Origin: Candidatus Eiseniibacteriota bacterium
GTDB lineage: Bacteria; Eisenbacteria; RBG-16-71-46
Direction of reading: 5' to 3'
Assembly (NCBI GenBank): GCA_963725865.1
Contig: CAVSAC010000014.1
Coordinates: 389,298-453,297 of the forward strand
DNA length: 64,000 nucleotides
The notes below the pieces were generated by a model. That model saw nothing but the letters and a program-made list of their open reading frames with translations. It did no database searches and was not told the origin of the DNA. Within the stretch, counting starts at the first letter, position 1, and each line of letters starts with the position of its first letter. Shown piece after piece: positions 19,614-50,767 of the stretch. The position numbers and the translations under genes were made by a program.

Positions 19614-21083
19614 TTACTTCTTGGGCGCGCCCGAGGCAGTCGCCGGGGCGGACCAGTCCGACTTCATCACCAGGTTGCCCGCCTTGAAGTGGAACGCCTG
19701 GCCCTTGGTCCAGTAAAGCCACGTCCGGTAGGTGTCTCGGTCGGCCTTCCATTCGAAGATCTCATCCGGCTTGCCCATCGCCTTGAAGGTGTTGACCTCG
19801 GCGGTCGCTCCGGCGGAGGCCGCCGACTCGGCGTCCGGCAACGCGGTGCCACTGCGCAGCGCGAGGTAGACCATCGCTTCCTCGGTGCTCTTGGACTTGT
19901 TGCCGCCCTTGTCGTACGCGGCGCTGAGCAGCTGATGGAACTCGGCCTTCTTCGGGTTCTTCATCAGCACCTTGTAGACGACCGCGACCGCGTCGTCGAA
20001 CTTGCCCTGCTCGATCAGGCTCTTGCCGAGTGCGCGCGGCACGTCGAGATCGTCGGGGTTGATCGACAGCGCGCGGCGGAACTGCGCCTCGGCCTGTGCG
20101 GGATCGCCGCCGTTCTGGAACGCCACGCCCGCGTTGTACGCCAGGTCGAACTCGCCCGGCCGCACCGCGCCCGCCTTGGACCACGCCTCGCCCGCCGACT
20201 TGAAGAAGCTCTTCTTGTCCGCGTCCGAGACACCGGGCGCCTGTGCCTTCTCGAAGTAGGCATTGCCGAGGCCGAGCTGCAGGTCCGCGTTGGCCGGCTC
20301 CGACTTGAGCAGGTCATTGAAGAACGTGATGGCCTCGTCGTACTTCTTGTCGTTGATGAGCTGGTTCGCGATGTTCTTGCGCAGGTTCGTCATCGAGGTG
20401 AGCAGCAGGCTGTCGTTCGGCGCCATCTTCAGCCCGGCCTTGAAGGTCGCCTCGGCGTCATCGAAGCGGCCGACATACTGGTACGCCTGGCCCATGCTCA
20501 GGTACGCGACCGGATCCTCGGGCTTCAGCTGCGTGGCCTTGGTGAACCAGCCGATCGCCTCGCTGTACTTGGCGCGCGTGTCGTTGAACATGCGCACCTC
20601 GCTCGCGTCCTCGCTCTTGGGCTTCAGCCCGATGTCCGGGTACAGCTCGAGGGCCGCCTTCATCAGGTTGATGCCCTTGTTGTAGAAGCCCACCCAGTAG
20701 CCCTGGCGATTGTCCTTCCACTGCTGGAGCTTCTTGTCGCCCTTGGCCGTGAGCCCGTCGAGGCAGCGCTTGAACGCGGCGCCCGATGGCGCGGCGCTGT
20801 CGAGCTCGGCGTAGGCCCAGCCCAGATAGCCCATGGCCTCGTAGTCGTCGGGGTCGCCCTCGGCGCACATCTCGAGCTGCTGGATGGCCTTGTGCATCTG
20901 GTTCAGGTAGTCCTCGGTATTGCCCTTGTCCTTGTCGCGCATGCCGCCCACGACATACTGGATGCCGCCGGCGCAATGCTCGTTGCGGGCCTGAGCGACA
21001 CCACCGAGCGTCACCGCCGTCAGGACGGCCAGCGCCGTTCCGATTGCGAACGCACGACGATTCACGGTCCCCTCCTCCCTCAC
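19614..21083 (-). CDS. Secreted TPR-repeat protein (Lys-rich)
   Basis: Signal peptide (NRRAFAIGTALAVLTAVTLGGVAQA), then ~10 TPR-like repeats (AYLSMGQAYQYVGRFDDAEATFKAGLKMAPND ...). Confidence 0.6.
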   Translation of the reverse strand: MREEGTVNRRAFAIGTALAVLTAVTLGGVAQARNEHCAGGIQYVVGGMRDKDKGNTEDYLNQMHKAIQQLEMCAEGDPDDYEAMGYLGWAYAELDSAAPSGAAFKRCLDGLTAKGDKKLQQWKDNRQGYWVGFYNKGINLMKAALELYPDIGLKPKSEDASEVRMFNDTRAKYSEAIGWFTKATQLKPEDPVAYLSMGQAYQYVGRFDDAEATFKAGLKMAPNDSLLLTSMTNLRKNIANQLINDKKYDEAITFFNDLLKSEPANADLQLGLGNAYFEKAQAPGVSDADKKSFFKSAGEAWSKAGAVRPGEFDLAYNAGVAFQNGGDPAQAEAQFRRALSINPDDLDVPRALGKSLIEQGKFDDAVAVVYKVLMKNPKKAEFHQLLSAAYDKGGNKSKSTEEAMVYLALRSGTALPDAESAASAGATAEVNTFKAMGKPDEIFEWKADRDTYRTWLYWTKGQAFHFKAGNLVMKSDWSAPATASGAPKK

Positions 21084-21808
21084 ATGAGACGCGTGCCGTT
21101 CACCGTGAGCCCGTACGCGGCTCCCAGGAACGACGCCGCCTTGCGAGACACCAGTAGGCGCGTCATGAAGATCTCGAAGTACTCCATCACATGAGAGATG
21201 CCGGTGTCCACGGTGAGCTCCAACGTGATCTGCTTGCCGGCCTCGTCCACGTTCAGGAAGGACTTCTGCACCGCGTAGTTCACGCGGTCGTGGATGTCGA
21301 ACTTGATCATCTCCGGGTTCCGCACCCGGCTGCGGTGCACGTCGCTCTTGTCGGCGAGGATGAGCGCGGCGCTCACCGCGGTCACCGGATCGCCGTCCGT
21401 CTCGTGATGGTTGCCGATCGCGGAGATCACGGTGATCGTCTCCTCGGTCGGCATCCCCATCTCGGTCAGGATCTGCATCGCCATCACCGCCCCGCTCTGG
21501 GCGTGGTGGTCGCGATTCACGACATTGCCGATATCGTGCAGGTAGCCGGCGATGCGCGCCAACTCCACGTCCCGCTCCGGGTAGCCGAGCCGCTTCAGGA
21601 TGTTCCCGGCGATGTTTGCGACCAGTCCCACGTGCCGCTCCCCGTGCTCGGTGTATCCGATCTTCTCGAGCGACTCGTCCGCCTTGCGGATGTGCAGCCG
21701 GACCCGCGGATGGTCCTTCACCATCTCGAAGGTGATGTGCGCGCCTCCGCCGACGGCCGGCGGCGCCGTGTCCGGCTGGGCATGGTTCGGAGTGTGGTGA
21801 CGAGTCAT
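21080..21808 (-). CDS. HD-domain phosphohydrolase
   Basis: HD motif region (GYLHDIGNVVNRDHHAQSGAVMA). Stop overlaps the TPR gene start (ATGA). Confidence 0.6.
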   Translation of the reverse strand: MTRHHTPNHAQPDTAPPAVGGGAHITFEMVKDHPRVRLHIRKADESLEKIGYTEHGERHVGLVANIAGNILKRLGYPERDVELARIAGYLHDIGNVVNRDHHAQSGAVMAMQILTEMGMPTEETITVISAIGNHHETDGDPVTAVSAALILADKSDVHRSRVRNPEMIKFDIHDRVNYAVQKSFLNVDEAGKQITLELTVDTGISHVMEYFEIFMTRLLVSRKAASFLGAAYGLTVNGTRLM

Positions 21809-22020: not shown

Positions 22021-22644
22021 TCAGCGGCGCGGCTGCCGGCGGCGGGCGTTCGCCTCGAGGTACGTCGCAAGCGAATCCGGACGGCCGGGCGGCGCGACCT
22101 CGAAGCGGAGCCTCAGCGCGTCGGCGCCGGTGACCACGTAGGTGAGTCGGAAGCGTGGCGTGCCGGGCGCGGGCTCGCTCACGAACTCGAACGTGTCGCG
22201 GGCCGCCGAGACCCGCGCCGTGTAGTCGATCGCGTGCCCCTCGTTGTCGAGGTACAGCGCGCGCACGCGGCCCGATCCGTCCTCGTGGCGCAGCATCATG
22301 AGATCGTCGTGGCGGCTGGCGGGTCGCCCCGGCGCAGCCGGGTACTCGGCGAAGCTGCGCCGCACGAGGATGCGCCCCTGCAGATCGAGCGCGAACGAGA
22401 ACGCGCCGCTGCCGTGTCCCGGCGCCCCGTCGCCCTCGCCGATCCAGTCGCCCATCAACGGGCGCCACCCCTCCCATGTCGTCGCGGTGGAGTCGCCCGA
22501 CGCCGCACGCACGACGTCGGTCCGCCACCCGATCGTCGCCAGCCCCACCACCACGACGGCGACGGCGATCGCGCGCCAGCGACCGCCCGATCCGCTCGGC
22601 GCTTCGCGCCGGGATCCTCGAATGCCCGCGAGCGTGAGTCTCAC
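22021..22644 (-). CDS. Hypothetical membrane-anchored/secreted protein, translationally coupled to priA
   Basis: GTG start overlaps the priA stop (GTGA). N-terminal hydrophobic segment (RWRAIAVAVVVVGLATIGW). The rest (208 codons) has protein-like composition and high GC3. Confidence 0.45.
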   Translation of the reverse strand: MRLTLAGIRGSRREAPSGSGGRWRAIAVAVVVVGLATIGWRTDVVRAASGDSTATTWEGWRPLMGDWIGEGDGAPGHGSGAFSFALDLQGRILVRRSFAEYPAAPGRPASRHDDLMMLRHEDGSGRVRALYLDNEGHAIDYTARVSAARDTFEFVSEPAPGTPRFRLTYVVTGADALRLRFEVAPPGRPDSLATYLEANARRRQPRR

Positions 22645-24650
22645 AGCACCTCCACCGGGTCGATGTCCACCACCACCTTGACCGTGCGCTTGTGCCCGTG
22701 TTCCTCGGCCGCCTCCAGCGCCGCCGCGGCGATGGCGCGCAGCCTGGGCGCGCTGCCGCCCTTGAGCAGCAGGTGCCAGCGGTGGCGGCCGCGCAGTCGC
22801 GCGAGCATCTGGGGCGCGGGGCCCAGCACGCGCACGTCCGCCGCAGCGGCCGCCGCCGCGATGGCCTCGCCGACCGCGCTCGCGACGCGCTCCACGTCGG
22901 CCTCGTCGGCGCCGGTGAACAGCACCGCGGCGAGCCGCACGTACGGCGGGTAGCCGGCCTCGCGCCGCGTCGCGAGCTCGCCGTCGACGAACGCCGCGGC
23001 GTCGTGCCGCGCCGCCGACACGACCGCCGGATGCTCCGGCGTGCACGTCTGCACGAACACCTCGCCCGGCGTCTTGCCACGGCCCGCGCGGCCCGAGACC
23101 TGGACCAGCAGTTGCCAGGTGCGCTCGGCGGCGCGGAAGTCGGGCAGGTGGAGCGCCACGTCGGCGTCCAGCACCCCCACCAGCGTGACACGCGGGAAGT
23201 CGAGCCCCTTCGCGATCATCTGGGTGCCGAGCAGCACGTCGGCCTCGCCGCGCGCGAATGCGCGCAGCACGCGCGCGGGCTCGGCGCGGTCCCGCGCCAC
23301 GTCGGTGTCGAGCCGCAGCACGCGCGCCTGCGGGAACACCGTCGCCAGCTCGCGCTCGACCCGCTGCGTGCCCGCGCCGCCGAATCGCAGCAGCGCCGCG
23401 TGGCACTTCGGGCACTGCGCCCCGGCCGGTTCCTGGTGATCGCAATAGTGGCAGCGCCAGACGCGCGGGCTCACGTGCAGCGTCAGCGTGATGTCGCAGT
23501 GCGGGCACTCCGGCACCCACCCGCACGCGCGGCACTGGGTGTGGTGGGAATGGCCGCGGCGATTGAGGAACAGCAGCATCTGCTCGCCGCGCGCGAGCCG
23601 CTCGCCGATGGCGGCGCGGAGCGGACGCGAGAGCAGCGAGCCGCCCTCGCCCTCGCGGCGCAGGTCCACGACCCGCACCTCGGGCAGCCGGCGGCGGTCG
23701 ATGCGCTCGGGCATCGCGAGGCGGCGGTACTTGCCGCGGCCGGCGTTGGCGAGCGACTCCAGGCTCGGCGTCGCCGAGCCCAGCACCACCGGGATGCCCA
23801 GCAGTTGCGCGCGCCGCACCGCGACGTCGCGGCCGTGGTAGCGGAGTTGTTCGCTCTGCTTGTAGGCCGGCTCGTGCTCCTCGTCCACCACGATCAGCCT
23901 CAGCGACGGCAGTGGCGCGAACACGGCCGAGCGCGCGCCCACCACCACGTCGAGCGCGCCGCGGCTCGCCAGCTCCCAGTTGCGCCGCCGCTCGCCGACC
24001 GACAGATACGAGTGCAGCACTCCGACGCGCCCGCCGAAGCGCTGCTCGAACGCCGCCACGACCTGCGAGCCCAGCGCGACCTCGGGCACCAGCACGAGCG
24101 TCTGCCCGCCCGCCTCGCGCGCCGCGCGCGCCGCGCGCAGGTAGACCTCGGTCTTGCCGCTCGCCGTCACGCCGTGGAGCAGCAGCGGCGCGAACGCTTT
24201 CGCCACGACCGCCGCCTCGACCGCGCGCACCGCCGCCGCCTGGGGTGGCGTCATCGTGATGCGCTCCGGCATCGCGAGCCGCATCACGGCGTCCTCGCTC
24301 GCGTGCGCTCGCGCGCGGCTCCGCGCGAAGCCCTCCAGCCCGCCGGGCAGCGTCGCGGCGAGCACCTCGCCGAGCGCCGCGAGGTAGTAGTCCGCGATCC
24401 AGCGCGCCAGCGCCATCAGGTGGGCGGAGATCGGCGCCACGGGCAGCACCGCGCCGAGGTCGAGCAGCCGCGCCGGCGCGTCCGCCGGCGGCTCGGCGAG
24501 TACCTCGACCACGAACCCGCGCGCGGCACGGTTGCGGAACGGCACCGTGACCTGCACACCCGGTTTCAGGCGGGCGATCAGACTCTCGGGGACGCGGTAG
24601 ACGAAGGTGCGCCGCAGCGGGATCGGCAGCGCGACGCGAACGAAGGACAT
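22641..24650 (-). CDS. priA: Primosomal protein N' (replication restart helicase)
   Basis: DEAD/DEAH helicase motifs (LLHGVTASGKTEVY, VVDEEH), cysteine-rich zinc-binding insert (CRACGWVPECPHCD...CHYCDH...CPKCH). 669 aa. Confidence 0.85.
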   Translation of the reverse strand: MSFVRVALPIPLRRTFVYRVPESLIARLKPGVQVTVPFRNRAARGFVVEVLAEPPADAPARLLDLGAVLPVAPISAHLMALARWIADYYLAALGEVLAATLPGGLEGFARSRARAHASEDAVMRLAMPERITMTPPQAAAVRAVEAAVVAKAFAPLLLHGVTASGKTEVYLRAARAAREAGGQTLVLVPEVALGSQVVAAFEQRFGGRVGVLHSYLSVGERRRNWELASRGALDVVVGARSAVFAPLPSLRLIVVDEEHEPAYKQSEQLRYHGRDVAVRRAQLLGIPVVLGSATPSLESLANAGRGKYRRLAMPERIDRRRLPEVRVVDLRREGEGGSLLSRPLRAAIGERLARGEQMLLFLNRRGHSHHTQCRACGWVPECPHCDITLTLHVSPRVWRCHYCDHQEPAGAQCPKCHAALLRFGGAGTQRVERELATVFPQARVLRLDTDVARDRAEPARVLRAFARGEADVLLGTQMIAKGLDFPRVTLVGVLDADVALHLPDFRAAERTWQLLVQVSGRAGRGKTPGEVFVQTCTPEHPAVVSAARHDAAAFVDGELATRREAGYPPYVRLAAVLFTGADEADVERVASAVGEAIAAAAAAADVRVLGPAPQMLARLRGRHRWHLLLKGGSAPRLRAIAAAALEAAEEHGHKRTVKVVVDIDPVEVL

Positions 24651-24796: not shown

Positions 24797-24849
24797 CGGG
24801 CAACACAAAGCCGGGCCGGCGGCGTGCGTCAGGCACACGCCGGCCCGGC
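24797..24849 (-). terminator. Rho-independent terminator after the REC gene (end of c-di-GMP operon)
   Basis: Minus-strand reading: GCCGGGCCGGCG-loop-CGCCGGCCCGGC (12-bp stem) followed by TTTGTGTT. Confidence 0.55.
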
Positions 24850-24884
24850 CTCCAGGGACACGTTGCTGCGGTCCGTGTGGAGGC

Positions 24885-25280
24885 CTAGGCCTGCATGCGG
24901 TTCGGGCTGGACTGCCCGAGGATCGCGTTGATGCGTTCGACCAGCTTGCGGGGGCTGAACGGCTTGGTGATGTAGTCGTCCGCTCCCACCTCGAAGCCGA
25001 TCTTCTGGTCCACGTTGCGGCCCTTCGCCGACAGCAGGATGACCGGGATCTGCTTGGTGTTGTCGTCCGCCTTCAGCAGCTTGCAGGTCTCGTAGCCGTC
25101 CAGCTTCGGCATCATGATGTCGAGGACGATGAGATCGGGATGCTCCGCTCTCGCCTTCTCGAGTGCCTGTTCGCCGTCCAGCGCGGTCAGGACCTCGTAG
25201 CCCTCCATGCCGAGACTGAAGTCCAGGATGTGCACGATGTAGATCTCATCGTCCACCACCAGGATCTTTCCCTTCGCCAT
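24885..25280 (-). CDS. Stand-alone response-regulator receiver domain (CheY-like)
   Basis: ILVVDDE...LIVLDIMMPKLDGYE...ILLSAKG...DDYITKPF. 131 aa, no output domain. Confidence 0.8.
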   Translation of the reverse strand: MAKGKILVVDDEIYIVHILDFSLGMEGYEVLTALDGEQALEKARAEHPDLIVLDIMMPKLDGYETCKLLKADDNTKQIPVILLSAKGRNVDQKIGFEVGADDYITKPFSPRKLVERINAILGQSSPNRMQA

Positions 25281-25286
25281 TGCGAC

Positions 25287-28067
25287 TCACCTCCCTGCGT
25301 GCGGGGTCACGTGCTCGCCCGTCATGGGCGACGTGCCGGACTCGTGCTCCACGTCCGCCAGCGCTTCCGCGAAGACCGCGACGATCTCCGGGTCGAACTG
25401 ACGCCCTCCAAGCCGGCGCAACTCCTCGAGCGCCTGCTCTCGCGACAGAGCAGGCCGATGGGGCCGCCCCACCGTCATGCTCTCCCATGCATCCACCACC
25501 GCCAGGATCCGGCTGCCGACCGGGATCGCCTCGCCGGCGATGCCGCGCGGATAGCCGCTCCCATCCCACCACTCGTGGTGACTCAGGACGATGTCGCGCA
25601 CGGCGCCCATGGTCTCGAGCGGGCGCAGCAGCTCGGCGCTCAGCTCGGGATGGCGTTCGAGCGCCTCGCGCCCGCTCGGCGACAGGGCGCCGGTGGCGCC
25701 GGTCACTTCGTCTCCGATGTTCGCCATGCCGACATCGTGGATGCTGGCGGCGAACGAGATCACGCCGGCCTCCGACTCGCCGAGCCCGTGACGGCGCGCC
25801 AGCGCGCGCGCGATGCGCACGCGATCGGGGGCGCGGTCGCGGCTGCGATCGAGGTGTCGCAGCACGTCGCGCAGCGCCTGCGTGGTGTCGGTCACGTGCC
25901 CCTGCGACTCCTCCATCACGAGCGCCTGCTCCCACGCCACGGTGACCCGGTCGGCGAGATGCAGGAGCAGGTGGCAGTCCTCGGCGTCGAACGGCTTCTG
26001 CGCGACCGGATCGGTGACGCTGAGCACGCCGAGCAGCCCGCGCTCGCCCTCGAGCGGCACGGACAGGAAGGTGCCGGTGCGGTAGTCCGAGCGGCCCGAC
26101 GGCTGGACCTCGGCGCGCGACTCGTCGCCCGCGACGCACACCGGGCGACGGTGCTCCATCACCCAGCCGGCCACGCCCTGACCGCGATGGATGCGCGCAT
26201 CGCGCACCACCTGCTCGTCGAGCCCGAGAGCCGCCTGGATGCGCAGGTCTCCACTCTCGTCGGGTGCGAGCAGCGAGACCACGCGCGCGTTCATGACTTC
26301 CGCCACCATCTCGATCGCCAGCCTCAGGACGTCTTCCGACCCCTCACGTGGACGCGGAGTCTCGCGTACGGTGACGCGCGGTCCGGTCCGCCTCGGCAAC
26401 ACCACCGTGAAGCGCGAACCGCGGCCGGGCGTGCTCTCCGCGAAGACCCGACCTCCGTGCCACTCCACGATCGACTTACAGATCGCCAGACCGAGCCCGC
26501 TGCCTCCGAAGCGTCGCACGAGCGAGGAATCCACCTGGTAGAAGCGCTCGAAGACCTTCTCGAGCGCCTCCTCGGGGATTCCGATGCCCGTGTCCTCCAC
26601 CTGGAGCGTCACGTCGCGGGTGTCACCCGTCAGGCGGAGGACCACGTTCCCGCCCTCGGGAGTGAACTTGACCGCGTTGCCGCCCAGATGGAGGACCAGT
26701 TGACGGAGCTGGTCCCGGTCGGCGTCGATCCCGGTATCGGCCGCCAGCACCTCGGCCTTGAGAGTCACCTGGCCGGCCTGGGCCATGGGATCCAGCAGCC
26801 GCCGGCCCTCCTCGAGCAAGTCACCGAGGTCCACGCTCTGGCGGTTGAGTCGCATCTGCCCAGAATCGAAACGGTTCAGGTCGAGAACCGATTCGATCAG
26901 CCGGGACAGCCGCTGGCTCTCTTCGTCGATGATGCCGAGGAACCGCCGGACCTGGGCGGGCGGCAGCTCGTTGTCCCCCGCCGACAGCAGGGTCTCGACG
27001 TAGGCGCGGATCGCGGTGAGCGGGGTGCGCAGCTCGTGCGAGACGGTCGAGAGGAACGTGCCGCGCAACGCGTGCAGCTCGTGCATGCGCTTGCCCGAGC
27101 CCTCGAGATCGCGGGTGTGTTGTTCGAGCTCGCCGTAGAGGCGGGCGTTCTCGATCGCGACGACCGCGTGGTGCCCGAACATCTCGATCACCTCGACCGT
27201 CTCGCTGGAGGGCACCAGCCGGTCCACGGGATCGTCGAGCGAGAAGTACGCGACCAGCTGCCCCGCGCGATCGAACAGCGGCACCAGCAGCACGTCGTCC
27301 GGGTGCCACTCCCAATCCTCCCGCGGGCCCAGGTCGCTGGTGACCCCGGCGGGCAGCTCGGCGTTGAACGGACTGGAGTGGCTTATGAAGTAGGAGCGCC
27401 CGACCTTGAATTCGTCCTTGAGCCACGAGAGGAACCGCTCGACGCCGATCTCCTCCGCGTCGAGCTTCGTGCGAGCCTCGGCATCGAGCCCGGCGAACGC
27501 GCGCGCGCGCAGGCGTTCGGTGCCCGGCTCGCGCACGCGCAGCAGCGCGATGCGGAATCCGAGCGAGGACTGCAGCGTGTCGACCAGCCGCGTGAACAGC
27601 CGGTCCTGGTCCAGCTCGGAGTTGATCTGGACGATATGCTGCAGCACCTCGTGGAGCTTCTGCGCGCGCTTGCGGTTCTCCTCGACCTGATTGAAGTAGA
27701 GGCGCGCGAGTCGCTGCCGCGTCTCGGTGAGGTCGTGCACCTGCTGGCGGAGCGCGTCCACCTCGGCGGGGCTGCCGTCCTCGGGGCCGCTCGCCAACGC
27801 GGCCGCCAGGTCGGCGGCGGCCTCGGCCACCGCGTCGTCGTGCGCGGCCGTCGCGGCGTCCTCGCGGGCGCTCACCGCCGCCTCGCGCGCCGTGACCGCG
27901 GCCGACCGGACCTCGGCCGCGCGGCCCACGGTCGGCGAATCGGGGGCGAGACCGTGCGCCTTCTTCAGCTTGCCCAGCTCGCGCCGGGTGCGATCCAGCT
28001 CCGAGCGCAGCCGGAGCTCCTCGGCCGACGGTCCGGTCCCGTGTCCCTTGCGGTTGGTGTTGCTCAT
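25287..28067 (-). CDS. Cytoplasmic hybrid sensor: coiled-coil, GAF, HisKA, HATPase_c, GAF, HD-GYP (histidine kinase fused to c-di-GMP phosphodiesterase-type domain)
   Basis: H-box LSTVSHELRTPLTAIRAY. G-boxes (VEDTGIGIP...GGSGLGLAICK). C-terminal HD...HHEWWDGSGYPRG HD-GYP signature. No TM segments. ATG overlaps the upstream paralog stop (ATGA). Confidence 0.8.
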   Translation of the reverse strand: MSNTNRKGHGTGPSAEELRLRSELDRTRRELGKLKKAHGLAPDSPTVGRAAEVRSAAVTAREAAVSAREDAATAAHDDAVAEAAADLAAALASGPEDGSPAEVDALRQQVHDLTETRQRLARLYFNQVEENRKRAQKLHEVLQHIVQINSELDQDRLFTRLVDTLQSSLGFRIALLRVREPGTERLRARAFAGLDAEARTKLDAEEIGVERFLSWLKDEFKVGRSYFISHSSPFNAELPAGVTSDLGPREDWEWHPDDVLLVPLFDRAGQLVAYFSLDDPVDRLVPSSETVEVIEMFGHHAVVAIENARLYGELEQHTRDLEGSGKRMHELHALRGTFLSTVSHELRTPLTAIRAYVETLLSAGDNELPPAQVRRFLGIIDEESQRLSRLIESVLDLNRFDSGQMRLNRQSVDLGDLLEEGRRLLDPMAQAGQVTLKAEVLAADTGIDADRDQLRQLVLHLGGNAVKFTPEGGNVVLRLTGDTRDVTLQVEDTGIGIPEEALEKVFERFYQVDSSLVRRFGGSGLGLAICKSIVEWHGGRVFAESTPGRGSRFTVVLPRRTGPRVTVRETPRPREGSEDVLRLAIEMVAEVMNARVVSLLAPDESGDLRIQAALGLDEQVVRDARIHRGQGVAGWVMEHRRPVCVAGDESRAEVQPSGRSDYRTGTFLSVPLEGERGLLGVLSVTDPVAQKPFDAEDCHLLLHLADRVTVAWEQALVMEESQGHVTDTTQALRDVLRHLDRSRDRAPDRVRIARALARRHGLGESEAGVISFAASIHDVGMANIGDEVTGATGALSPSGREALERHPELSAELLRPLETMGAVRDIVLSHHEWWDGSGYPRGIAGEAIPVGSRILAVVDAWESMTVGRPHRPALSREQALEELRRLGGRQFDPEIVAVFAEALADVEHESGTSPMTGEHVTPHAGR

Positions 28068-30376
28068 GCGACGTCCTCGCGCTCCAGCACGCGCAGGAAC
28101 GCCGCCACCACCTCGGGGTCGAACTGGCTGCCGGCCGAGCGGTCCATCTCGGCGCGCGCGGGCTCGCGCTGCAGCGACGGCCGCCACGGGCGGCCGCGCG
28201 TCATGCTCTCCCAGGCATCCACGACCGCGAGCACGCGCGCGCCCATCGGGATCTCGGCGCCCGCCAGGCCGCGCGGGTAGCCGGACCCGTCCCAGCGCTC
28301 GTGGTGTCCAAGGATGATCTCGCGCACCGAGCCGAGGTACTCAAGCGGGCGCAGGATCTCCACGCTCACCTCGGGGTGGTGGAGCACCGCCTCGCGGTCC
28401 GCCTCGTCCAGCGGCGCGCTGCTGCGCACCGCCGCCGGTAGCCGCGTCATGCCGACGTCGTGGATGCTCATCGCGTAGCCCACCACGTCGATGTCGGCCG
28501 GGCCGAGTCCCAGCTCGCGCGCCAGCTCGCGCGCCATCCGCACGGCGTGGTGGCCGCCCAGCATGTGCTCGCGGCGCAGCCGGGTCACCGAGCGCACCAT
28601 CTCGAGCGCCTCCTCGACCACGCGCCCCGACCCGGGGTGGGCGCAGGCGCGCTCGAGCGCGCTGCCGATGCGATCCACCAGCGCGGTGAGGACCCCGAGA
28701 TCGGCGTCGTCGAACGAGGCGCCGTCGCGCTTGTTGTTCACGTTGATCACGCCCAGCACCTCGTTGTCCACGCGCATGGGGACGCACAGCAGCGACTTGG
28801 TGTGGTACTGGGGATGGTTGAGCCGGCGGAAGCGCCGGTCGGTCTCGATGTTGTCGACCAGCAGCGGGCGGCCCCACGCGGCGACGGCGCCCGCCACGCC
28901 GGAGCGGACCGGCGTGCGGCGGCCCTTCAACTGCGCGGTGTCCAGTCCCCGCGCCGCCGCGACGAACAGATCGCCGCGCTCGGGGTCCACCAGCATGAGC
29001 GAGGAGATCTCGGCGTCCATCGCGACCGAGACCATCTCCACGGTGTGATCGAGCAGCGCGCGCAGGTCCTTGCGCGCCAGCACCAGCCGCGCGACGCGGC
29101 GCGCCTGGGCCGAGGCGAGCTGCCGCAGCGGCAGCGAGAACTGGAAGCGGGCGCCCCGCGGCGTGCGGTTCTCGACCCCGATCGTGCCGCCGTGCAGCTC
29201 CACGATGCCGCGCGCGATCGGCAGGCCGAGCCCGGTCCCCTCGGGCGACTCGCCCTCGCTCGCCGCGCGGGCGCGGTAGAAGCGCTCGAACACGTGCGGG
29301 ATGTCGTCGGGCGCGATCCCGGGGCCCCCGTCCTCGACCGCGCCGATCCAGACGTCGCCCTGGGACTGCGCGACCAGCCGCACCGGGGAACCGTACGGCG
29401 CGTGCTTGATCGCGTTGGTGAGCAGATTGATGAGCAGGCGGCGCAGCAGATCGGGATCGGCCTCGGGCTGCAGGTCACCCTCCACCTCGACCTCGAACGT
29501 CGCGTGGCGAGCCTTGGCCACCGGCTGGAGGCCCTCGATGGTCTCGTTCACGAGCTCCGCGAGCGAGAAGCGCGCGAGCCGCAGCGGGCGCTGCCCGGCC
29601 TCGAGTCGCGAAAGATCGAGGATGTCGGTCACGAGCCGCCCGAGGCGGTCGCACTCATCGTTGATGATGCCGAGGAAGCGCTGTCGCGGCGCTTGCGCGT
29701 TGTGCAGGTTGTCGAGCATCGCCTCGGTGTACGCCTTGATCGCGGTCAGCGGCGTGCGGATCTCGTGCGCGACCACCGACATCAGGCTCGAGGAGGTCTC
29801 CTCGCTGCCCGCGAGGCGGTGCTGCAGCTCCGCGGCACGCCGGCGCTCGTCCTCGATCTGGCGCTCGAGCTCGCCGCGCGCGAGCGCCAGCGCGAGCCCG
29901 TCGCCGATCATCTGCAGCATCAGGCGCTCGTCGGGGATCAGCCGTCGCGGGGCCTCGAAATCCACCAGCAGGAACCCGTGGATCGTGCCGCCCAGCGCGA
30001 GCGGCACCGCGGCGATCGCTGCCGGGGGGGACCCCCACAGGCCGTTCTCGCGCGGCTGCGCGGGATCCTCGCCCTCGTCGAACACCGCGCGGCCCTCGCG
30101 CAGCACCCGCTCGAGCGGGCCACCGGGCTCCGCCAGCCAGGGCATCGTCACGCCCGCGGCGTCGGTCGCGCGCATCGAGCCGCTGCGCGGGTCGAGCCTC
30201 ACGACGCGATGATCCGACGCGTCGAGCGCGCGGACGACACAGCTGCCGGCGATCGCGCACGCGGTCTCGAGGTCGGCGGTCGAGCGCAGCGCCAGCAGCG
30301 CCTCGGCGAGCGGCGCGAGCACGGGCGAGCCGGGGCCCGGAGAGCCGTTCATCGGACGCAACAGATCGGTCGCCAT
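28064..30376 (-). CDS. Paralogous hybrid sensor: GAF, HisKA, HATPase_c, GAF, HD-GYP
   Basis: H-box MSVVAHEIRTPLTAIKAY. HATPase (VEDGGPGIAP...GTGLGLPIARG). C-terminal HD...HHERWDGSGYPRG. Same architecture as the neighbouring gene. Confidence 0.8.
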   Translation of the reverse strand: MATDLLRPMNGSPGPGSPVLAPLAEALLALRSTADLETACAIAGSCVVRALDASDHRVVRLDPRSGSMRATDAAGVTMPWLAEPGGPLERVLREGRAVFDEGEDPAQPRENGLWGSPPAAIAAVPLALGGTIHGFLLVDFEAPRRLIPDERLMLQMIGDGLALALARGELERQIEDERRRAAELQHRLAGSEETSSSLMSVVAHEIRTPLTAIKAYTEAMLDNLHNAQAPRQRFLGIINDECDRLGRLVTDILDLSRLEAGQRPLRLARFSLAELVNETIEGLQPVAKARHATFEVEVEGDLQPEADPDLLRRLLINLLTNAIKHAPYGSPVRLVAQSQGDVWIGAVEDGGPGIAPDDIPHVFERFYRARAASEGESPEGTGLGLPIARGIVELHGGTIGVENRTPRGARFQFSLPLRQLASAQARRVARLVLARKDLRALLDHTVEMVSVAMDAEISSLMLVDPERGDLFVAAARGLDTAQLKGRRTPVRSGVAGAVAAWGRPLLVDNIETDRRFRRLNHPQYHTKSLLCVPMRVDNEVLGVINVNNKRDGASFDDADLGVLTALVDRIGSALERACAHPGSGRVVEEALEMVRSVTRLRREHMLGGHHAVRMARELARELGLGPADIDVVGYAMSIHDVGMTRLPAAVRSSAPLDEADREAVLHHPEVSVEILRPLEYLGSVREIILGHHERWDGSGYPRGLAGAEIPMGARVLAVVDAWESMTRGRPWRPSLQREPARAEMDRSAGSQFDPEVVAAFLRVLEREDVA

Positions 30377-30389
30377 CGCTCGCTCCGCG

Positions 30390-31382
30390 TCAGGCCACGT
30401 CGCGTTCGCTGCCCGGCGCCGTGTCGCTGCGGCGCCGTTCGCCGACCAGCACGCTGCCGGGGATGCCCTTGCCGTGCTCCTTCAGCTCCTGGGCCACGTC
30501 GATGAGCTGCGCGAGGTGCGTGACCGGCATCCGATCGGTGCTCACCATCGCAATCGTCACGCTCATGAGCGGGAATCGCTCCGGCACGTGGAGGCGATTG
30601 CGCACCTCGATGTGCCCGCGGGCCACGTCCGCCTCGTCGTAGAGGGCCGGCACCGCCTCGGTGAACTGGGCGATGATCTCGTGGCCGATCGGCTCGGCGT
30701 GCTCCGGAGACGTCAGCAGCACGAAGTCGTCGCCGCCGATGTGCCCCACGAATCCGCCCGCGCCGCCGAGCCGCGCGGAGACCTCGACCAGGATCGCCGC
30801 GAGGCGCTGAATGGCCTCGTCTCCGCGCGCGTAGCCGTAGTGGTCGTTGAACGCCTTGAAGAAGTCGATGTCGACCTGGAGCATCGCGAACGGCAGCCCG
30901 CTCGCGAGGCGGAGCTGGATCTCGTCGTGGATCGAGATGTTGCCCGGCAGCCCGGTGAGCGGGCTCATCGCGCGCTGCTGGCGGCTCCACTCCAGCATGT
31001 TGCGGATGCGCAGCAGCAGCTCGCGGTGCTCCCACGGCTTGGTCACGTAGTCGTTGGCGCCATCCGCGAGCCCCGAGACCTTGTCGGCGACCTCGGACTT
31101 CGCGGTGAGCATGATGATCGGGAGCGTGCGGGTCTCGAACGCGGCGCGCAGCCGGCGACACACCTCGTAGCCGTCGAGCCGGGGCATCATCACGTCGAGC
31201 AGCATCAGATCGGGGCGGTACGACAGCGCGTACTCGAGGGCCTGCTGTCCGTCGCGGGCTTCGATCACGTCGAAGCCGGCGCCCTCCAGCTGGAAGCGAA
31301 GCACCTCTCGGAGGTGGGGCTCATCCTCGGCGATGAGGATCCGGGTCGTGTTCACGCCGTCGTGGCTCCTGTGGAGTCGCAT
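30390..31382 (-). CDS. Response regulator REC-GGDEF (PleD/WspR-like diguanylate cyclase) with non-canonical GGDDF active-site motif
   Basis: REC (ILIAEDEP...LMLLDVMMPRLDGYE...TAKSE...DYVTKPW). GGDEF domain (FKAFNDHYGYARGD...GHIGGDDFVLL). No RxxD I-site upstream of the motif. Confidence 0.8.
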   Translation of the reverse strand: MRLHRSHDGVNTTRILIAEDEPHLREVLRFQLEGAGFDVIEARDGQQALEYALSYRPDLMLLDVMMPRLDGYEVCRRLRAAFETRTLPIIMLTAKSEVADKVSGLADGANDYVTKPWEHRELLLRIRNMLEWSRQQRAMSPLTGLPGNISIHDEIQLRLASGLPFAMLQVDIDFFKAFNDHYGYARGDEAIQRLAAILVEVSARLGGAGGFVGHIGGDDFVLLTSPEHAEPIGHEIIAQFTEAVPALYDEADVARGHIEVRNRLHVPERFPLMSVTIAMVSTDRMPVTHLAQLIDVAQELKEHGKGIPGSVLVGERRRSDTAPGSERDVA

Positions 31383-31787
31383 CGTTGAGTTCGGAACACA
31401 GATCAGCCGTGGACACCTCGGAGGCCGCGACCCGCTGGACTCCGACCGCCCGAGCGTCGCGAGGACGCGCGAGCACCACGCGACGGGCCGTGGAGGGAGC
31501 ACGCCGCGTGTCCGGCCGGGATCCGGGGCGGGAAGTGACTGCCCCGTGTACCCCTAGGCTTTCCCCTGACTTATCGGCGCAGGGCGGGGGTTACTTGACC
31601 GTCGTCTGGGGCGCGAGCCAATGGGGAAGGCGGAGTCCGGCCCGACTGGACCGGGCCGCAGGCACGGCCACGGACCTCGCGAGTCGCGTGCATCTGAACA
31701 CCTGCCGGCCCGCACTGGGCGGGCATCAGCGCCCTGCGGAGGGCGCCGGCGGCGCGTGGCGAGCGGTGGTCCCGGGCCCGGACCGCG

Positions 31788-32828
31788 TCAATCGCCGCGC
31801 ATCGCGAGGCCCGACTCCTCGAGGGCCGCGACCGCGTCCAGCTCGGGCTCGGCCACATCGCCGCGCTCGAGCATCCAGGCGCCGAGCTGGGCGATCATCG
31901 CCGCGTTGTCCGCGCACAGCCGCAGGGACGGCACGCGCAGCACCACGCCGGCGCGACCGCAGGTCTCGGCCAGGCGCGAGCGCAGCGCGCGGTTCGCGGC
32001 GACACCGCCGCCGAGGTTGAGCGCGCGCGCGCCGACCGCCGCCACCGCGCCCATGGTGCGCGCGACGAGCGTGTCGACCACCGCGGCCTGGAACGAGGCC
32101 GCCACGTCGGCGACCAGCGCGGCGGGCCAGGGACCGGGCCCCCGCGCCGCGAGCGCCTGCACGACGGCGGTCTTGAGCCCCGAGAACGAGAAGTCGAATC
32201 CCGGCCGGTCGAGCATCGGACGCGGGAACGCGAACGCGGTCGGATCGCCGGACGTGCTGAGGCGATCGAGCACGGGGCCGCCGGGGAAGCCGAGGCCGAG
32301 CAGCTTGGCGACCTTGTCGTACGCCTCGCCCGCCGCATCATCGCGGGTGCTCCCCATCCAGCGGTACTCGCCGACGCCCCGGACTTCGACCAACTCGGTG
32401 TGCCCGCCCGAGACCACCAGCGCGACCGCGGGATACGGCGAGGGCCCGTGCTCCAGCGTGCCCGCATGCAGGTGCGCCTCGATGTGGTTGACCCCCACCA
32501 CCGGGATGCCGAGGGCCAGGCCATAGGCCTTCGCGAACGCCACCCCGACCACCAGCGAGCCGATCAGGCCCGGCGCCCGGGTGACCGCGATCGCGGTGAG
32601 CGCGCGCGGCTCCACCTCGGCCTCCGCGAGCGCCTCGCGCACCAGCCGCGGGAGGTGCTCGAGGTGCGCGCGCGAGGCGAGCTCGGGCACCACGCCGCCG
32701 TAGAGCCGATGCACGTCCTGCGCGGCGATCAGGTGGGCGCGCAGCCGGGTGCCGCGTTCGAGCACCGCGACGCTGGTGTCGTCACAGGAGCTCTCGATGC
32801 CGAGCACCAGATCGGTGGCGTGGCTCAT
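31788..32828 (-). CDS. tsaD: tRNA N6-adenosine threonylcarbamoyltransferase
   Basis: LVLGIESSCDDTSVAV...GVNHIEAHL...VSGGVAAN Kae1/TsaD motifs. 346 aa. Confidence 0.85.
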   Translation of the reverse strand: MSHATDLVLGIESSCDDTSVAVLERGTRLRAHLIAAQDVHRLYGGVVPELASRAHLEHLPRLVREALAEAEVEPRALTAIAVTRAPGLIGSLVVGVAFAKAYGLALGIPVVGVNHIEAHLHAGTLEHGPSPYPAVALVVSGGHTELVEVRGVGEYRWMGSTRDDAAGEAYDKVAKLLGLGFPGGPVLDRLSTSGDPTAFAFPRPMLDRPGFDFSFSGLKTAVVQALAARGPGPWPAALVADVAASFQAAVVDTLVARTMGAVAAVGARALNLGGGVAANRALRSRLAETCGRAGVVLRVPSLRLCADNAAMIAQLGAWMLERGDVAEPELDAVAALEESGLAMRGD

Positions 32829-32925
32829 GGCGGACCAGCGGACTCCTTCCCATGGCCGCCCGCGAGGGCGCGGGCCGCGATCGACCGCGGCCGGCGCGGA
32901 ACGCTTCGCGGAGCGGAGTCGGGCC

Positions 32926-33267
32926 TCAGCGCGACGGCGGGCCCGGCTCGGGTTCCAGCGCCGACTCGAGCCAGGCCAGGTACTTCGGCGCACCGGCCGC
33001 GATGCGGACGGCGACGCATTCCGGAACGTCGTACGGATGCAGCTCGTGAAGGCGCGACATCAGCGCCGTCCAGTCCTGCTTGCGCGTCTTCAGCAGCACG
33101 GTGACCTCGCGTGCGTCCGCGATGCTGCCCTCCCAGCGATAGAGCGACCGCGCGCCCGGCAGCAGCGTGCCGCACGCGGCGAGCCGCTCCTCGACCAGCA
33201 CGCGCACGACGCGCGCGGCGTCGTCCTCGGTGGCGAACGTGGTGAACACCATCAGCATCTCGGTCAT
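32926..33267 (-). CDS. cutA: Divalent-cation tolerance protein CutA
   Basis: MLMVFTTFATEDDAARVVRVLVEERLAACGTLLPGARSLYRWEG...HPYDVPE. 113 aa. Confidence 0.75.
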   Translation of the reverse strand: MTEMLMVFTTFATEDDAARVVRVLVEERLAACGTLLPGARSLYRWEGSIADAREVTVLLKTRKQDWTALMSRLHELHPYDVPECVAVRIAAGAPKYLAWLESALEPEPGPPSR

Positions 33268-47948: not shown

Positions 47949-48047
47949 GCATTCCTGCGGGCCGACCGCCCCGCGTCACGCCGCGGTGATGCGCAGCCCC
48001 AGCCTGGGGTCGACGGTGAACAGCGAGCCGACCAGTGGCTCCTTCAG

Positions 48048-48404
48048 GTGTACGGCTCCCGAGGGCGTCTTCTCGAACAGCAGGAACACCGCGGCCTGTG
48101 CGGTGGCGAGTGCGATGCCGATGAACGCCTCGAGCGGCACGCTGCACGCGCGACCACGCAGCCAGGCGAACAGCTCGGCGCCGATGAACGTCATGCCGTG
48201 CAACTCGTCGCGGCCGGCGTCGACGTGACCGTCATCCGCAGCGGGCTCGGCCACGTGCACCTCGACACCACGTTTCTCCAAGCCCAGGCCAACGCCGAGA
48301 CCAAGCGCCGGGCGAGCGATCTCGTCGGCGGTCCCGCGCGATCCGTCCGACCGTCACGGTGGAAGCGCGACCCGGCATTGCTCGCCTGGCTCGACCCGCT
48401 GTGA
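48048..48404 (+). pseudogene. Degraded tyrosine-recombinase (integrase) C-terminal remnant
   Basis: ...AVQLVAAGVDVTVIRSGLGHVHLDTTFLQ resembles the integrase box-II region (LLxxGvDlxxIqxLLGHxsixTTqiYtH), but the catalytic Tyr is absent and the upstream region is out of frame. No start or RBS. Confidence 0.3.
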
Positions 48405-48424
48405 GTTGGGGTCTGACGCCTGAC

Positions 48425-50632
48425 TTAGTGGAGCACGCCCGTCGAGACGGCGAGGCGGATGGTGCGTGGCGCCTGGGGATGCGTATGCACGTCGGCGATA
48501 CCTTGCGGTGGCTCGCCACGAAGGCGAGACGTGTAGTAGTAGTCCACGTCGCTCACGGCACGATCGAGGAGATTGAACACTTCGAGCGCGACGGTCCAAC
48601 GGCCACGCGCGCAGCAGCCGATCCGAGTGTTCAGAATCGTCGATGCGGTGGAGCGCACCGTGTTGTCCTCGATCAGAGGCCGCGGCCCGAAGTACCGCAG
48701 GCGCAGCTCGGCGAACTCGCCCGAGGGTTGCTGGTACTCGATGCCGACCGATGCAACTCCTTCCACGGCGCCCGGGATGCGATCACCGACCGGATCACTG
48801 TCCGTGAAGCGCGCTCGCGAGTACGCCAGATCGGCGTCCATGTGCACGCGGTCGACCAGTCGACACTCACCCGACAGCTCGATGCCGGTTCGACGGCTCG
48901 GACGGCTCGGCTCGCTCGTGGCGGCGTCCCCTTGGAAGACTTGCTCCGAAGCGATGTCGAGCCCCCAGAGCGATGCGCTGGTCGACCAGCGGGATCCACC
49001 TGTGAGGCGCGCACCCACCTCGGCGCCTTTCGTGCGAATGAGCAATGCGCTGCGTTGGATCGGCGGCCCGCCCTGCACCGGGAAATGTTCGGGTGCCGGT
49101 TGAACTCCCTGCGCGGGGCTGCTGCCGCCGGAACTGAAGCGCGCCCCACGCACGTCGTCCGAATGGAAGCCGTACCCGCCGTTCACGAAAAGGTCGAACC
49201 CGCCCCAGGGCCCGAGGATGAGCGAGGCCTTGGGAGACACGATACCGGTGACGTCCGAGCCCGAGAATGATTGATAGCTGGACGTCACGTTGAAGCGATA
49301 GAGATCCGCCCGGGCCCCGAGGATCGTCCGCAGGAAAGACATCAACTGCGCATCGCTCTGCACGAAAGGCGACATGCTTTCCTCGGCGATCTGGTCTTCG
49401 CGAACCGTGGCGAGCCGACGCCGTGCCGCGGTGTGGAAGATCCCCACGCTCGCGATGTTGTCACTGCGGACGTCCACGCCGATCATCTGCCGCACCTCGC
49501 GATCGCGCGACCCGGTGATGCCCACATGCGAGAGATGAATCCCCGACACCACCCGTTGATCGGCCTGCTCGAACTGGTCCCCGTCGAGCGTGTCGTTCAG
49601 GAAGTAGGTGAAGTCCGAGAACAGGTCCAGCCGGTATGCGACGATGTAGGCGCTCGCCTTGGTGATGGACCCCGGCTCGACGTCATGGAACTCGGTCGAG
49701 AGGCTGTAGCGATACGACTGCCCGCCGTCCGTGGGGTCGATCGCGCCGAATCGGGAGACCTCGCCGGAGGCCACGGCCCGCTCCGGAATCTGGTCCGTCG
49801 AGTTCCACCGACCGTCGTAGCCCATCGCGGTGACGCTCAGGCCAAGCTCTGAGGCGCCGTTGTCATAGCGGATTAGCCCGTTGATCTTCCGGTACTCGTC
49901 CTGGTGCACCCACGGACCATCGTTCCGGATCAGCTCGATCGTGCCCAGCGCACTGCCGGATGCCAGCGGTGGCGACACAGCTACCAACGCCCGACGGTAT
50001 CCTTCCCCTCCCAGCGTGAGCGAGACGATCGGGCTCGGCAGCATGTTCCGATAGGAGATATGGGCCGAGCCGGCGCTCGAGAAGTCCCCGTCCTCGACCG
50101 AGTACGTGCCCTTTCGGTACTGAACCTCGCTCACCAGTTCGGGGATGACGAAGTTCAGATCGGTGTAGCCCTGCCCGTGGGCATGCGTGGGCATGTTCAC
50201 CGGCACACCCTCGATCGTCGTCGCGAAGTCGGTGCCGTGGTCGAGGTTGAAGCCGCGCAGGTAGTACTGGTTCGCCTTGCCCTCGCCGCTGTGCTGGCTG
50301 ATGAGCACGCCGGGGATGCTCTCGAGCACATCCCCGGCTCGGAGCAACGGTCGGAGCGCAAGCTGCTTCGGCGTCACGACACCCTGCGACGCGGCCGACC
50401 GCCGTGCGAGCGAGTCCTCGCACGAACCAAACACGTCGATCGGCGGAAGCGCGTACACACGAGTGCTGTCGGGCCCTGTCTGCTTTGCGCGCGTATCACC
50501 CGGCGCACCAGCCACGCTCCCGGCTCGGGCAGCGGGCGCGCTTGCGAGGAGACAGCTGGTCGAGACCGCCAGCAGGACCGCTATGCCCTGACCACAACCG
50601 ATAGGTACGACACGCCGAGGCCCGGTGGTCAC
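48425..50632 (-). CDS. TonB-dependent outer-membrane receptor
   Basis: Signal peptide, plug domain (DVLESIPGVLISQHSGEGKANQYYLRGFN), then a long beta-barrel with alternating hydrophobic pattern. 735 aa. Confidence 0.8.
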   Translation of the reverse strand: MTTGPRRVVPIGCGQGIAVLLAVSTSCLLASAPAARAGSVAGAPGDTRAKQTGPDSTRVYALPPIDVFGSCEDSLARRSAASQGVVTPKQLALRPLLRAGDVLESIPGVLISQHSGEGKANQYYLRGFNLDHGTDFATTIEGVPVNMPTHAHGQGYTDLNFVIPELVSEVQYRKGTYSVEDGDFSSAGSAHISYRNMLPSPIVSLTLGGEGYRRALVAVSPPLASGSALGTIELIRNDGPWVHQDEYRKINGLIRYDNGASELGLSVTAMGYDGRWNSTDQIPERAVASGEVSRFGAIDPTDGGQSYRYSLSTEFHDVEPGSITKASAYIVAYRLDLFSDFTYFLNDTLDGDQFEQADQRVVSGIHLSHVGITGSRDREVRQMIGVDVRSDNIASVGIFHTAARRRLATVREDQIAEESMSPFVQSDAQLMSFLRTILGARADLYRFNVTSSYQSFSGSDVTGIVSPKASLILGPWGGFDLFVNGGYGFHSDDVRGARFSSGGSSPAQGVQPAPEHFPVQGGPPIQRSALLIRTKGAEVGARLTGGSRWSTSASLWGLDIASEQVFQGDAATSEPSRPSRRTGIELSGECRLVDRVHMDADLAYSRARFTDSDPVGDRIPGAVEGVASVGIEYQQPSGEFAELRLRYFGPRPLIEDNTVRSTASTILNTRIGCCARGRWTVALEVFNLLDRAVSDVDYYYTSRLRGEPPQGIADVHTHPQAPRTIRLAVSTGVLH

Positions 50633-50767
50633 GTGATGAACCCTCTTACGCCCAAGGTCCGAATGGTGGCGCGCAACGCCTGGCCCCCGATCGCGGACGG
50701 TGCGTCGGCGCTCAGGGTGACGAAACGAACCTGCCCAGGAGGCTCCCGAGTAAGCCGCCGGACGCGC

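Follow-up and report, generated by a model that had tools for sequence, protein, structure and literature searches.

Does the fusion of a complete histidine kinase to a phosphodiesterase-type HD-GYP domain couple phosphotransfer to the turnover of cyclic di-GMP (c-di-GMP) within one polypeptide? The question is raised by an operon of four genes, here named G1 to G4, located on the minus strand (31382-24885) of a 64,000-nucleotide stretch of DNA, the window, from Candidatus Eiseniibacteriota bacterium (assembly GCA_963725865.1, contig CAVSAC010000014.1, positions 389,298 to 453,297). The operon encodes a receiver (REC) joined to a GGDEF-type domain (G1), two large paralogous proteins carrying both kinase and HD-GYP domains (G2 and G3) and a stand-alone receiver (G4), and a first-pass annotation had described it as a self-contained circuit of c-di-GMP synthesis and degradation. 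The comparison of these proteins with their orthologues showed that the four-gene cassette is a conserved, uncharacterised signalling module of two uncultured bacterial phyla, whose kinase-fused HD-GYP domains keep the family signature and have lost the canonical catalytic apparatus.

The two large proteins, G2 (28064..30376, minus strand, 770 amino acids) and G3 (25287..28067, minus strand, 926 amino acids), both show the order GAF-HisKA-HATPase-GAF-HD-GYP first proposed for them. In G2 this was established by Pfam (GAF_2 in two stretches, HisKA 8e-18, HATPase_c 5.5e-28, HD_5 5.9e-33, HD 4.6e-11), by an AlphaFold2 model (predicted local distance difference test, pLDDT, 81; predicted template modelling score 0.75) and by Foldseek. 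The limits are GAF 20-147, the dimerisation and histidine phosphotransfer (DHp) domain 190-262, which contains H204, the catalytic and ATP-binding (CA) domain ~272-418, GAF 436-579 and HD-GYP 585-769, and a single long helix (148-222) leads into the DHp domain. The N-terminal GAF of G2, taken alone, exceeded the Pfam threshold (34.5 bits vs 28.6). For G3 the assignment was based on Pfam (HisKA 6.5e-20, HATPase_c 5e-31, GAF 1e-20, HD_5 3.4e-35, with HD also matched), on BLASTP against G2, on the N-termini of orthologues and on motif statistics; an N-terminal motif and coiled coil (1-130) precede a diverged GAF (~135-312), the DHp domain with H344, the CA domain, a second GAF (~578-712) and HD-GYP (~725-905). 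The isolated N-terminus of G3 gave no GAF match above the Pfam threshold. Since a GAF match was obtained for 11 of 12 orthologue N-termini, and a match to the GAF-like DUF3369 for 7 of the 12, this region is regarded as a diverged GAF placed after a coiled-coil extension of ~130 residues. A profile-profile match of the G3 N-terminus to an alignment of the family (A1) was discarded as evidence, since it was inflated by the presence of G3 itself in that alignment.

The extreme N-terminus of the G3 orthologues carries a conserved motif, GPSxxELxLRxxLDxxRRELxKLKK (G3 residues ~1-26; 27990..28067, minus strand), and a variable spacer rich in Ala, Pro and Glu and then the coiled coil separate it from the GAF domain; the motif may act in localisation or in the binding of a partner. 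The description of G2 and G3 as near-identically organised tandem paralogues holds for the organisation and for the coupling of the genes through an ATGA overlap, but not for the sequences, which are merely 40% identical over 673 residues (BLASTP); this indicates old paralogues and no recent duplication.

The kinase boxes of both proteins are intact: H204 (AHEIRTPL), N321, D349-G-G-P-G and G380-T-G-L-G-L in G2, and H344, N464, D492-T-G-I-G and G522-S-G-L-G-L in G3. Across 118 orthologues of G3 these motifs do not vary, and across 119 of G2 they hardly do, and therefore both kinases are under selection in the lineage of the window. The nearest NCBIfam models were PnpS/PhoR/WalK for both proteins, and in the Foldseek search the core of the G2 model matched HK853/WalK, with DivL (4q20) among the structural neighbours. 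The operon proteins contain no segment whose hydrophobicity exceeds that of soluble proteins encoded nearby, tsaD among them. Both large proteins are soluble histidine kinases of the PhoR/WalK class. Each is gated by an N-terminal GAF that differs from that of its paralogue, and each continues into a complete GAF-HD-GYP module like that of PmGH, the active HD-GYP enzyme of Persephonella marina; the C-terminal half of the G2 model matched PmGH (4mcw) over 355 of 361 columns at 25% identity.

The state of the HD-GYP active site decides how the fusion is to be understood. The HD and HHExxDGxGYP elements are present in G2 (IHDVGM and GHHERWDGSGYP; HD_5 6e-33) and in G3 (IHDVGM and SHHEWWDGSGYP; HD_5 3e-35). 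When the sequences were mapped onto PmGH, whose numbering is used below for positions outside G2 and G3, all seven core metal ligands were found in G2 (H610, H639, D640, H667, H691, H692 and D720) and six of seven in G3, with Asp at the H189 position; E278, GYP and RxxR are retained in both. The residues expected of a canonical catalyst are altered. K225, the Lys of HDxGK, is Met in both proteins (HDVGM), and the equivalents of D183 and E185 are His and Leu, so that the catalytic Lys and the D183/E185 pair are missing. The KPG motif is missing too, being SSA in G2 and variable or HPG across the family, and the RxY[K/R] position reads RPWR in G2 and RPHR in G3, both Arg residues being near-invariant in the family. 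In PmGH the changes K225A, D183A and H189A abolish activity, while Ala in GYP, R314 or K317 barely affects catalysis (PMC4159591).

The same changes extend through the orthologues. At the K225 position all 119 G2 orthologues have Met, and 110 of the 118 G3 orthologues have Met (102) or Leu (8); the H189 equivalent varies across the family as D/S/N/Q/R/G. H221 is Arg in 22 of the 119 G2 orthologues (~18%) and Tyr in many distant kinase-fused members; one of H221, H250, H276 and H277 is lacking in 10-15% of the G3 orthologues, and E278 and GYP are kept in 118/118. Even the G2 orthologue that is 84% identical (locus L012) has Gln at H610, and its companion G3 reads RDAVE for HDVGM. Among 60 diverse kinase-fused representatives HDxGM or YDxG[LM] was present in 59 and HDIGK in one. 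The nearest GAF-HD-GYP proteins without a kinase (from Omnitrophota, Planctomycetia and others) retain GHSERV, HDIGK, KPx and RPYRK, so that this loss of the canonical catalytic machinery is a specific feature of the clade fused to kinases. The strongest constraint falls on E278, GYP, RxxR and the G-site ligands, a pattern more in keeping with the binding of a ligand or of a protein partner than with catalysis of the canonical kind. The first-pass annotation had proposed a check of the metal ligands, and its outcome is mixed: HD, HHE, GYP and the final Asp are present, but Lys, D183/E185 and KPG are missing and the first His is unconstrained in the family. Its further statement that each polypeptide couples phosphotransfer to c-di-GMP turnover is not borne out for domains that lack K225, D183 and E185 and do not conserve H189, three of these positions being ones whose mutation inactivates PmGH.

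A GAF-less actinomycete HD-GYP protein outside the kinase-fused clade (L065, 6374..7465) also has HDIGM, with Met for the catalytic Lys; the Lys-to-Met change may thus have arisen more than once.

The separability of the two halves of the fusion became apparent from the loci that hold G2 without G3. In 11 of the 12 complete G2-only loci the ATP lid is degenerate (DxGPPL and xxRLGL vs DxGxG and GxGLGL; L006, L007, L008, L009, L010, L011, L013, L014, L015, L030 and L031), and in seven of them (L007, L009, L010, L013, L015, L030 and L031) the phospho-accepting His is replaced by Thr. All 12 retain HDxGM and HHExxDGxGYP, and their G2 products are putative natural pseudokinase/HD-GYP proteins. At loci with both kinases the G2 kinase motifs are intact in 12/13. 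The reverse decay was found in L021 and L022, where the kinases are intact, HD is lost from both proteins and HHE/GYP is altered (RGE..GWP, RHE..GTP); the G3 of L028 is degenerate in both halves, with His changed to Arg and a degenerate HD-GYP domain. The existence of both kinase-dead and HD-GYP-dead lineages shows that the two halves are separable, and the kinase-dead G2-only loci show that the cassette can be maintained in lineages where it encodes no active kinase. A further, non-catalytic function of the DHp/CA core is suggested by this, the simplest being the docking of receivers. The idea of a self-contained circuit is therefore difficult to maintain, given the degenerate ATP lid in 11/12 G2-only lineages and the additional loss of the phospho-acceptor His in seven.

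The first and last genes were correctly recognised at the outset as a receiver-GGDEF protein and a stand-alone receiver, with the correction that the motif of the former is GGDDF and not GGDEF. G1 (30390..31382, minus strand) is 330 amino acids long from the ATG at 31382, or 321 from the GTG at 31355 according to the database annotation, and consists of a receiver (~aa 14-127; Pfam Response_reg 4e-30), a helical linker and a palm domain (~aa 146-318; Pfam GGDEF 2.5e-12). Its AlphaFold2 model (pLDDT 80) gave WspR (3bre/3i5a), DgcR (6zxb) and PleD as the top Foldseek matches over the full length, and G1 is a WspR/DgcR-type REC-GGDEF protein; the model and these matches ruled out the reading of G1 as a truncated GGDEF protein, which the Pfam coverage of positions 5-91 of 161 might have implied. 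D171 and D173 (Mg-binding), N179 and D188 (guanine-specific) are conserved on the complete palm fold. No RxxD inhibitory site, which is optional for the family, was found five residues upstream of GGDDF, where it would be expected, the sequence there being GGFVGHIGGDDF.

The active-site motif of G1, GHIGGDDF (G216-G-D-D-F), recurs unchanged in 27/27 locus orthologues and at two loci from Krumholzibacteriota. It falls outside the accepted definition of an active motif, [G/A/S]G[D/E]E[F/Y]; proteins with GGDDF are as a rule considered inactive, and GSU1937 is the sole exception shown to be active (PMC8835794). G1 is thus a complete GGDEF-type palm domain of uncertain activity, and the earlier claim that one of the two receiver proteins makes c-di-GMP is not supported as it stood.

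G4 (24885..25280, minus strand, 131 amino acids) is a receiver by Pfam (Response_reg 9e-31). Both receivers possess the complete D-D-D-T/S-K-type set of residues (E19, D20, D63, T93 and K115 in G1; D10, D11, D54, S84 and K106 in G4), and in NCBIfam both are nearest to PhoB/RpaB/YycF. As judged from these assignments, the PhoR/WalK-like kinases and PhoB/RpaB-like receivers are predicted to be compatible classes.

G4 is also the best conserved protein of the locus. Its identity to the window was 78-97% across 29 Eisenbacteria loci (within L001-L032) and 63% to Krumholzibacteriota, compared with 47-82% for G1, 39-84% for G2, 42-74% for G3, 48-85% for tsaD and 45-86% for priA, which makes the single-domain receiver by far the most constrained component. 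Such constraint is unusually strong for a single-domain receiver, the housekeeping genes tsaD and priA being just 45-86% identical.

The distribution of the cassette was followed in a synteny scan limited to 80 loci, with one genome per species. G2 and G3 each have at least 120 full-length orthologues (54-84% identity), collinear across all five domains, and those with a name almost always belong to Candidatus Eisenbacteria or Eiseniibacteriota. The order tsaD-G1-[G2 and/or G3]-G4-priA was found in ~30 Candidatus Eisenbacteria genomes, of which ~13 have both kinases, 12 complete and 2 partial loci have G2 only and 3 have G3 only. In Krumholzibacteriota the cassette reads tsaD - REC-GGDDF - small kinase - two kinase-HD-GYP paralogues - REC - priA - TPR - rho, where TPR denotes a tetratricopeptide repeat gene. 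The additional small histidine kinase (268-273 amino acids; L082 2174..2995, L083 2146..2952) is composed of DHp and CA domains only, and the downstream order priA-TPR-rho-rpmE is also conserved at both loci. The presence of both paralogues in this phylum indicates that the tandem pair predates the split of the two phyla. Any suggestion that the gene order is rare is contradicted by these data, the arrangement being the standard one of Candidatus Eisenbacteria and Krumholzibacteriota, though uncharacterised.

HMMER, run exhaustively against 1.8 billion cluster representatives, recovered, in addition, dozens of divergent fusions, counted as representatives of 50%-identity clusters, in which a single alignment at 28-41% identity runs from the kinase through HD-GYP. 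The named members of these clusters come from Nitrospira, Nitrospirae, Thermodesulfovibrionales and Candidatus Krumholzibacteriota; their architecture was confirmed by Pfam, which also disclosed a REC-kinase-GAF-HD-GYP variant. In Nitrospirota the fusion gene is solitary. Long match spans in Desulfobacterota loci (L046, L049, L051, L055 and L074) were considered as possible hidden fusions and were found to be kinase matches only. Several near-identical family members occur in metagenome-assembled genomes labelled Udaeobacter, Verrucomicrobiia, Saccharimonadaceae and Limnocylindria; these labels are probably binning or taxonomy errors, because all neighbours and closest relatives are Eisenbacteria.

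The four open reading frames lie where the first-pass annotation had placed them, co-oriented on the minus strand between tsaD upstream (32993..31788) and priA downstream (24650..22641). G1 and G2 are separated by 13 nt, with GGAG inside; the stop codon of G2 is overlapped by the ATG of G3 (ATGA); G3 and G4 are 6 nt apart, and GGGAGG comes just before this gap. This spacing and overlap support co-transcription. Between G4 and priA a GC-rich hairpin (~24800..24852, minus strand; stem ~20 bp) followed by UUUGUGUUG lies 35-85 nt past G4 and is a likely intrinsic terminator (-54.8 kcal/mol, z -2.5 on folding); its homologous counterpart in L012, the closest relative, has z -3.7. A simple terminator scan overlooked it and returned two intragenic chance sites, the hairpin being recognised by reading and folding the sequence. 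The four genes are one compact, translationally coupled operon, and in this respect the single terminated operon originally described is confirmed.

On the 5' side, sequence inspection delimited an intergenic region of ~400 nt between tsaD and G1 (31383..31787, minus strand), which presumably holds the promoter and leader. No sigma-70-like site was detected in it by a sigma-70 promoter scan, the ~400-nt leader gave no Rfam match at E<=1, and the search for riboswitches and other known RNAs gave no Rfam match and no tRNA anywhere in the 64-kb window. The G+C content of the window is ~72% and falls from ~0.72 to 0.64-0.66 at positions 1-4000 and 48000-54000. Between priA and a TPR gene (19614..21083, minus strand) lies an open reading frame (21080..21808, minus strand, 242 amino acids) that encodes a classical HD protein (Pfam HD 1e-11; YLHDIGN ... 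NHHE), a second member of the HD family beside the operon but not an HD-GYP protein; the G+C of this stretch is lower, 0.657.

The composite model that is tentatively preferred, at somewhat less than an even chance, describes a cytoplasmic node of two kinases and two receivers in which the HD-GYP domain is chiefly c-di-GMP-responsive and regulatory, or weakly catalytic. The N-terminal GAF domains of G2 and G3, which are very divergent, would recognise distinct cytoplasmic ligands; G3 would autophosphorylate on H344, as would the G2 of this genome on H204, and the phosphoryl group would pass to D63 of G1 and D54 of G4. Phosphorylated G1 would dimerise by its linker helix, as WspR and DgcR do, and would probably make c-di-GMP despite GGDDF. 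The fused GAF-HD-GYP module would serve as a docking or c-di-GMP-responsive regulator, or at best as a slow hydrolase, probably without robust phosphodiesterase activity; a mainly regulatory role is suggested because the domain belongs to a derived subfamily that has [H/Y]DxG[M/L], lacks the catalytic Lys and D183/E185 and leaves the first His free to vary. The module could feed the level of the messenger, or a contact of the GYP surface with a GGDEF protein such as that reported for RpfG, onto the kinase/phosphatase balance of its own polypeptide. G4 would be a shared diffusible partner, a phosphate sink or an allosteric modulator like DivK, and would bind to the DHp helices of both large proteins. 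Precedents exist in the HD-GYP protein RpfG, which is bound by hybrid kinases that inhibit its activity (PMC8463545), and in catalytically inactive HD-GYP proteins such as HnoD, which serve as regulators.

Several observations weigh against this model. The strong conservation of H250, H276, H277, D222 and D305 fits a retained, possibly catalytic, metal centre; the ligand sets of G2 (7/7) and G3 (6/7 and Asp) are compatible with real phosphodiesterase activity; and Lysobacter RpfG is active though it lacks an H189 equivalent. G1 might make no c-di-GMP, because GGDDF proteins are usually inactive. The phosphotransfer partners of G2 and G3 are assumed from gene adjacency and class alone, and the absence of G3 from G2-only genomes rests on metagenome-assembled genomes and on the 80 loci scanned.

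According to the timer model of the first-pass annotation, G2 and G3 are bifunctional, each a kinase with an active HD-GYP phosphodiesterase, and the c-di-GMP made by phosphorylated G1 is degraded by the HD-GYP domains. The retention in the window proteins of HD, H, HHE, D, GYP and RxxR, the superposition of the whole C-terminal half of G2 on an active enzyme, the near-invariance of the G-site and bridging ligands in the family, and the activity of RpfG-type enzymes without H189 and of the Geobacter GGDDF cyclase all agree with it. It is nevertheless considered rather unlikely, being opposed by the invariant change to Met of a Lys whose replacement by Ala kills PmGH activity, by the absence of D183 and E185, by the Gln at H610 and the RDAVE of the closest relative, by the frequent Tyr for the HD His in the wider fused clade and by the persistence of the cassette with a kinase-dead G2. 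This last observation, in the form of degenerate boxes in 11/12 G2-only lineages (7 of them with His changed to Thr) whose DHp sequence, GAF and HD-GYP stay conserved, would be explained if the signal flowed in reverse, the HisKA/HATPase core being a receptor for phosphorylated receivers, HD-GYP the output, and the phosphodonor of G1 and G4 encoded elsewhere. The extreme conservation of G4 is as expected for a receiver with several docking partners, and DivL is among the structural neighbours of the kinase core. Such a scheme has to face kinase motifs that are essentially invariant in the window and in its 119 G2 and 118 G3 closest orthologues, as well as a Krumholzibacteriota cassette that adds a third, small kinase, and it is regarded as quite improbable.

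A different nucleotide has also to be considered, namely that the HD-GYP domain acts on or senses cyclic GMP-AMP (cGAMP), pGpG or another cyclic oligonucleotide made by the GGDDF domain of G1. The substrate contacts are indeed non-canonical, with RPWR/RPHR for RxY[K/R], no KPG and Met at K225, and the one GGDDF enzyme of proven activity is a Hypr GGDEF protein that makes cGAMP. A Hypr reading of G1 is disfavoured by the specificity Asp that it retains (D188 at the D344-equivalent position, no Hypr Ser), which together with N179 predicts specificity for GTP; moreover, the cGAMP preference of HD-GYP domains is tied to RxxQ/RxxN, as against the RxxR found here. This explanation appears very improbable. 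In a more far-reaching and speculative reading, the kinase-fused [H/Y]DxG[M/L] clade would be a new class of cyclic-dinucleotide receptor, derived from a phosphodiesterase, that switches the histidine kinase or pseudokinase attached to it among kinase, phosphatase and receiver-docking states within a DivK/PleD-like core regulatory oscillator of Eisenbacteria and Krumholzibacteriota. This proposition in its full extent is unlikely; were it true, the oscillator, made up of the receptor clade, a GGDDF cyclase and a hyper-conserved receiver, would lie in conserved surroundings of housekeeping genes, tsaD ... priA-TPR-rho.

All the domains of the operon are familiar; what had gone undescribed is that an entire histidine kinase and a GAF-HD-GYP module are joined covalently in a single chain. 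In the full text of the literature searched, in which subscription journals are thinly covered, neither a characterised kinase/HD-GYP fusion nor work on c-di-GMP in Eisenbacteria was found, and kinase fusions are unmentioned in the text of the survey of HD-GYP architectures by Galperin and Chou; the initial impression that no fusion of this arrangement had been characterised is thus upheld. Automatic annotation already names such proteins 'histidine kinase/HD-GYP domain-containing protein'. The fusion defines a large family: G2 and G3 have at least 120 orthologues apiece, and clusters formed at 50% identity number in the dozens across Eisenbacteria, Krumholzibacteriota and Nitrospirota. Its altered active site, together with lineages that inactivate either half, constitutes a natural experiment on a phosphodiesterase domain turning regulatory, and the family also informs the wiring of second-messenger and phosphorelay signalling inside one polypeptide. 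Domain shuffling is common among signalling proteins; specific predictions would follow from the systematic change of the active site, from the transitions between kinase and pseudokinase and from the extreme conservation of the receiver. The operon is, moreover, a candidate central regulator for two phyla without cultured members.

The comparison with known systems shows which parts of the operon are shared and which are its own. PmGH (PDB 4MCW) has in common with G2 and G3 the HD, H250, HHE, GYP, D305 and R314 elements; here, however, an entire histidine kinase precedes the module on the same chain, D183, E185 and KPG are missing, K225 is Met and H189 is unconserved. In the RpfC/RpfG system of Xanthomonas and Lysobacter two-component control is likewise tied to HD-GYP, and RpfG also lacks the H189 ligand and works partly by protein-protein contacts, which include inhibitory binding of hybrid kinases. 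The HD-GYP domain of that system is carried by a response regulator under its own REC, whereas in the present proteins it is attached to the kinase with no REC between.

The Caulobacter DivJ/PleC/DivL-DivK-PleD system comprises two paralogous kinases, a single-domain receiver and a receiver-GGDEF protein, the receiver genes being adjacent, and its pseudokinase DivL binds phosphorylated DivK. The binding of a phosphorylated single-domain receiver by a pseudokinase parallels the His-to-Thr variants of G2, a likeness by logic alone, and homology of this system to the operon is demonstrated no further than common domain families. PleD differs from G1 in having two REC domains, a canonical GGEEF and an inhibitory site, and the Caulobacter kinases have no HD-GYP domain and are membrane- or pole-associated.

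G1 shares the layout of REC, helical linker and GGDEF with WspR, DgcR and Rrp1, of which WspR and DgcR are its best structural matches; it differs from them in GGDDF vs GG[D/E]EF and in the lack of RxxD upstream of the motif. The GGDDF motif itself is shared with the Hypr GGDEF protein GSU1937 of Geobacter, the only GGDDF enzyme reported to be active (PMC8835794), in which the Ser typical of Hypr proteins occupies the base-specificity position and the N-terminus is transmembrane, where G1 has Asp and a REC input. Finally, the H-NOX/HnoK-HnoD system of Shewanella is a branched two-component c-di-GMP network with an inactive HD-GYP regulator; HnoD is a REC-HD-GYP protein with degenerate HD and HHE, whereas in G2 and G3 HD and HHE are kept and the domain is fused to the kinase.

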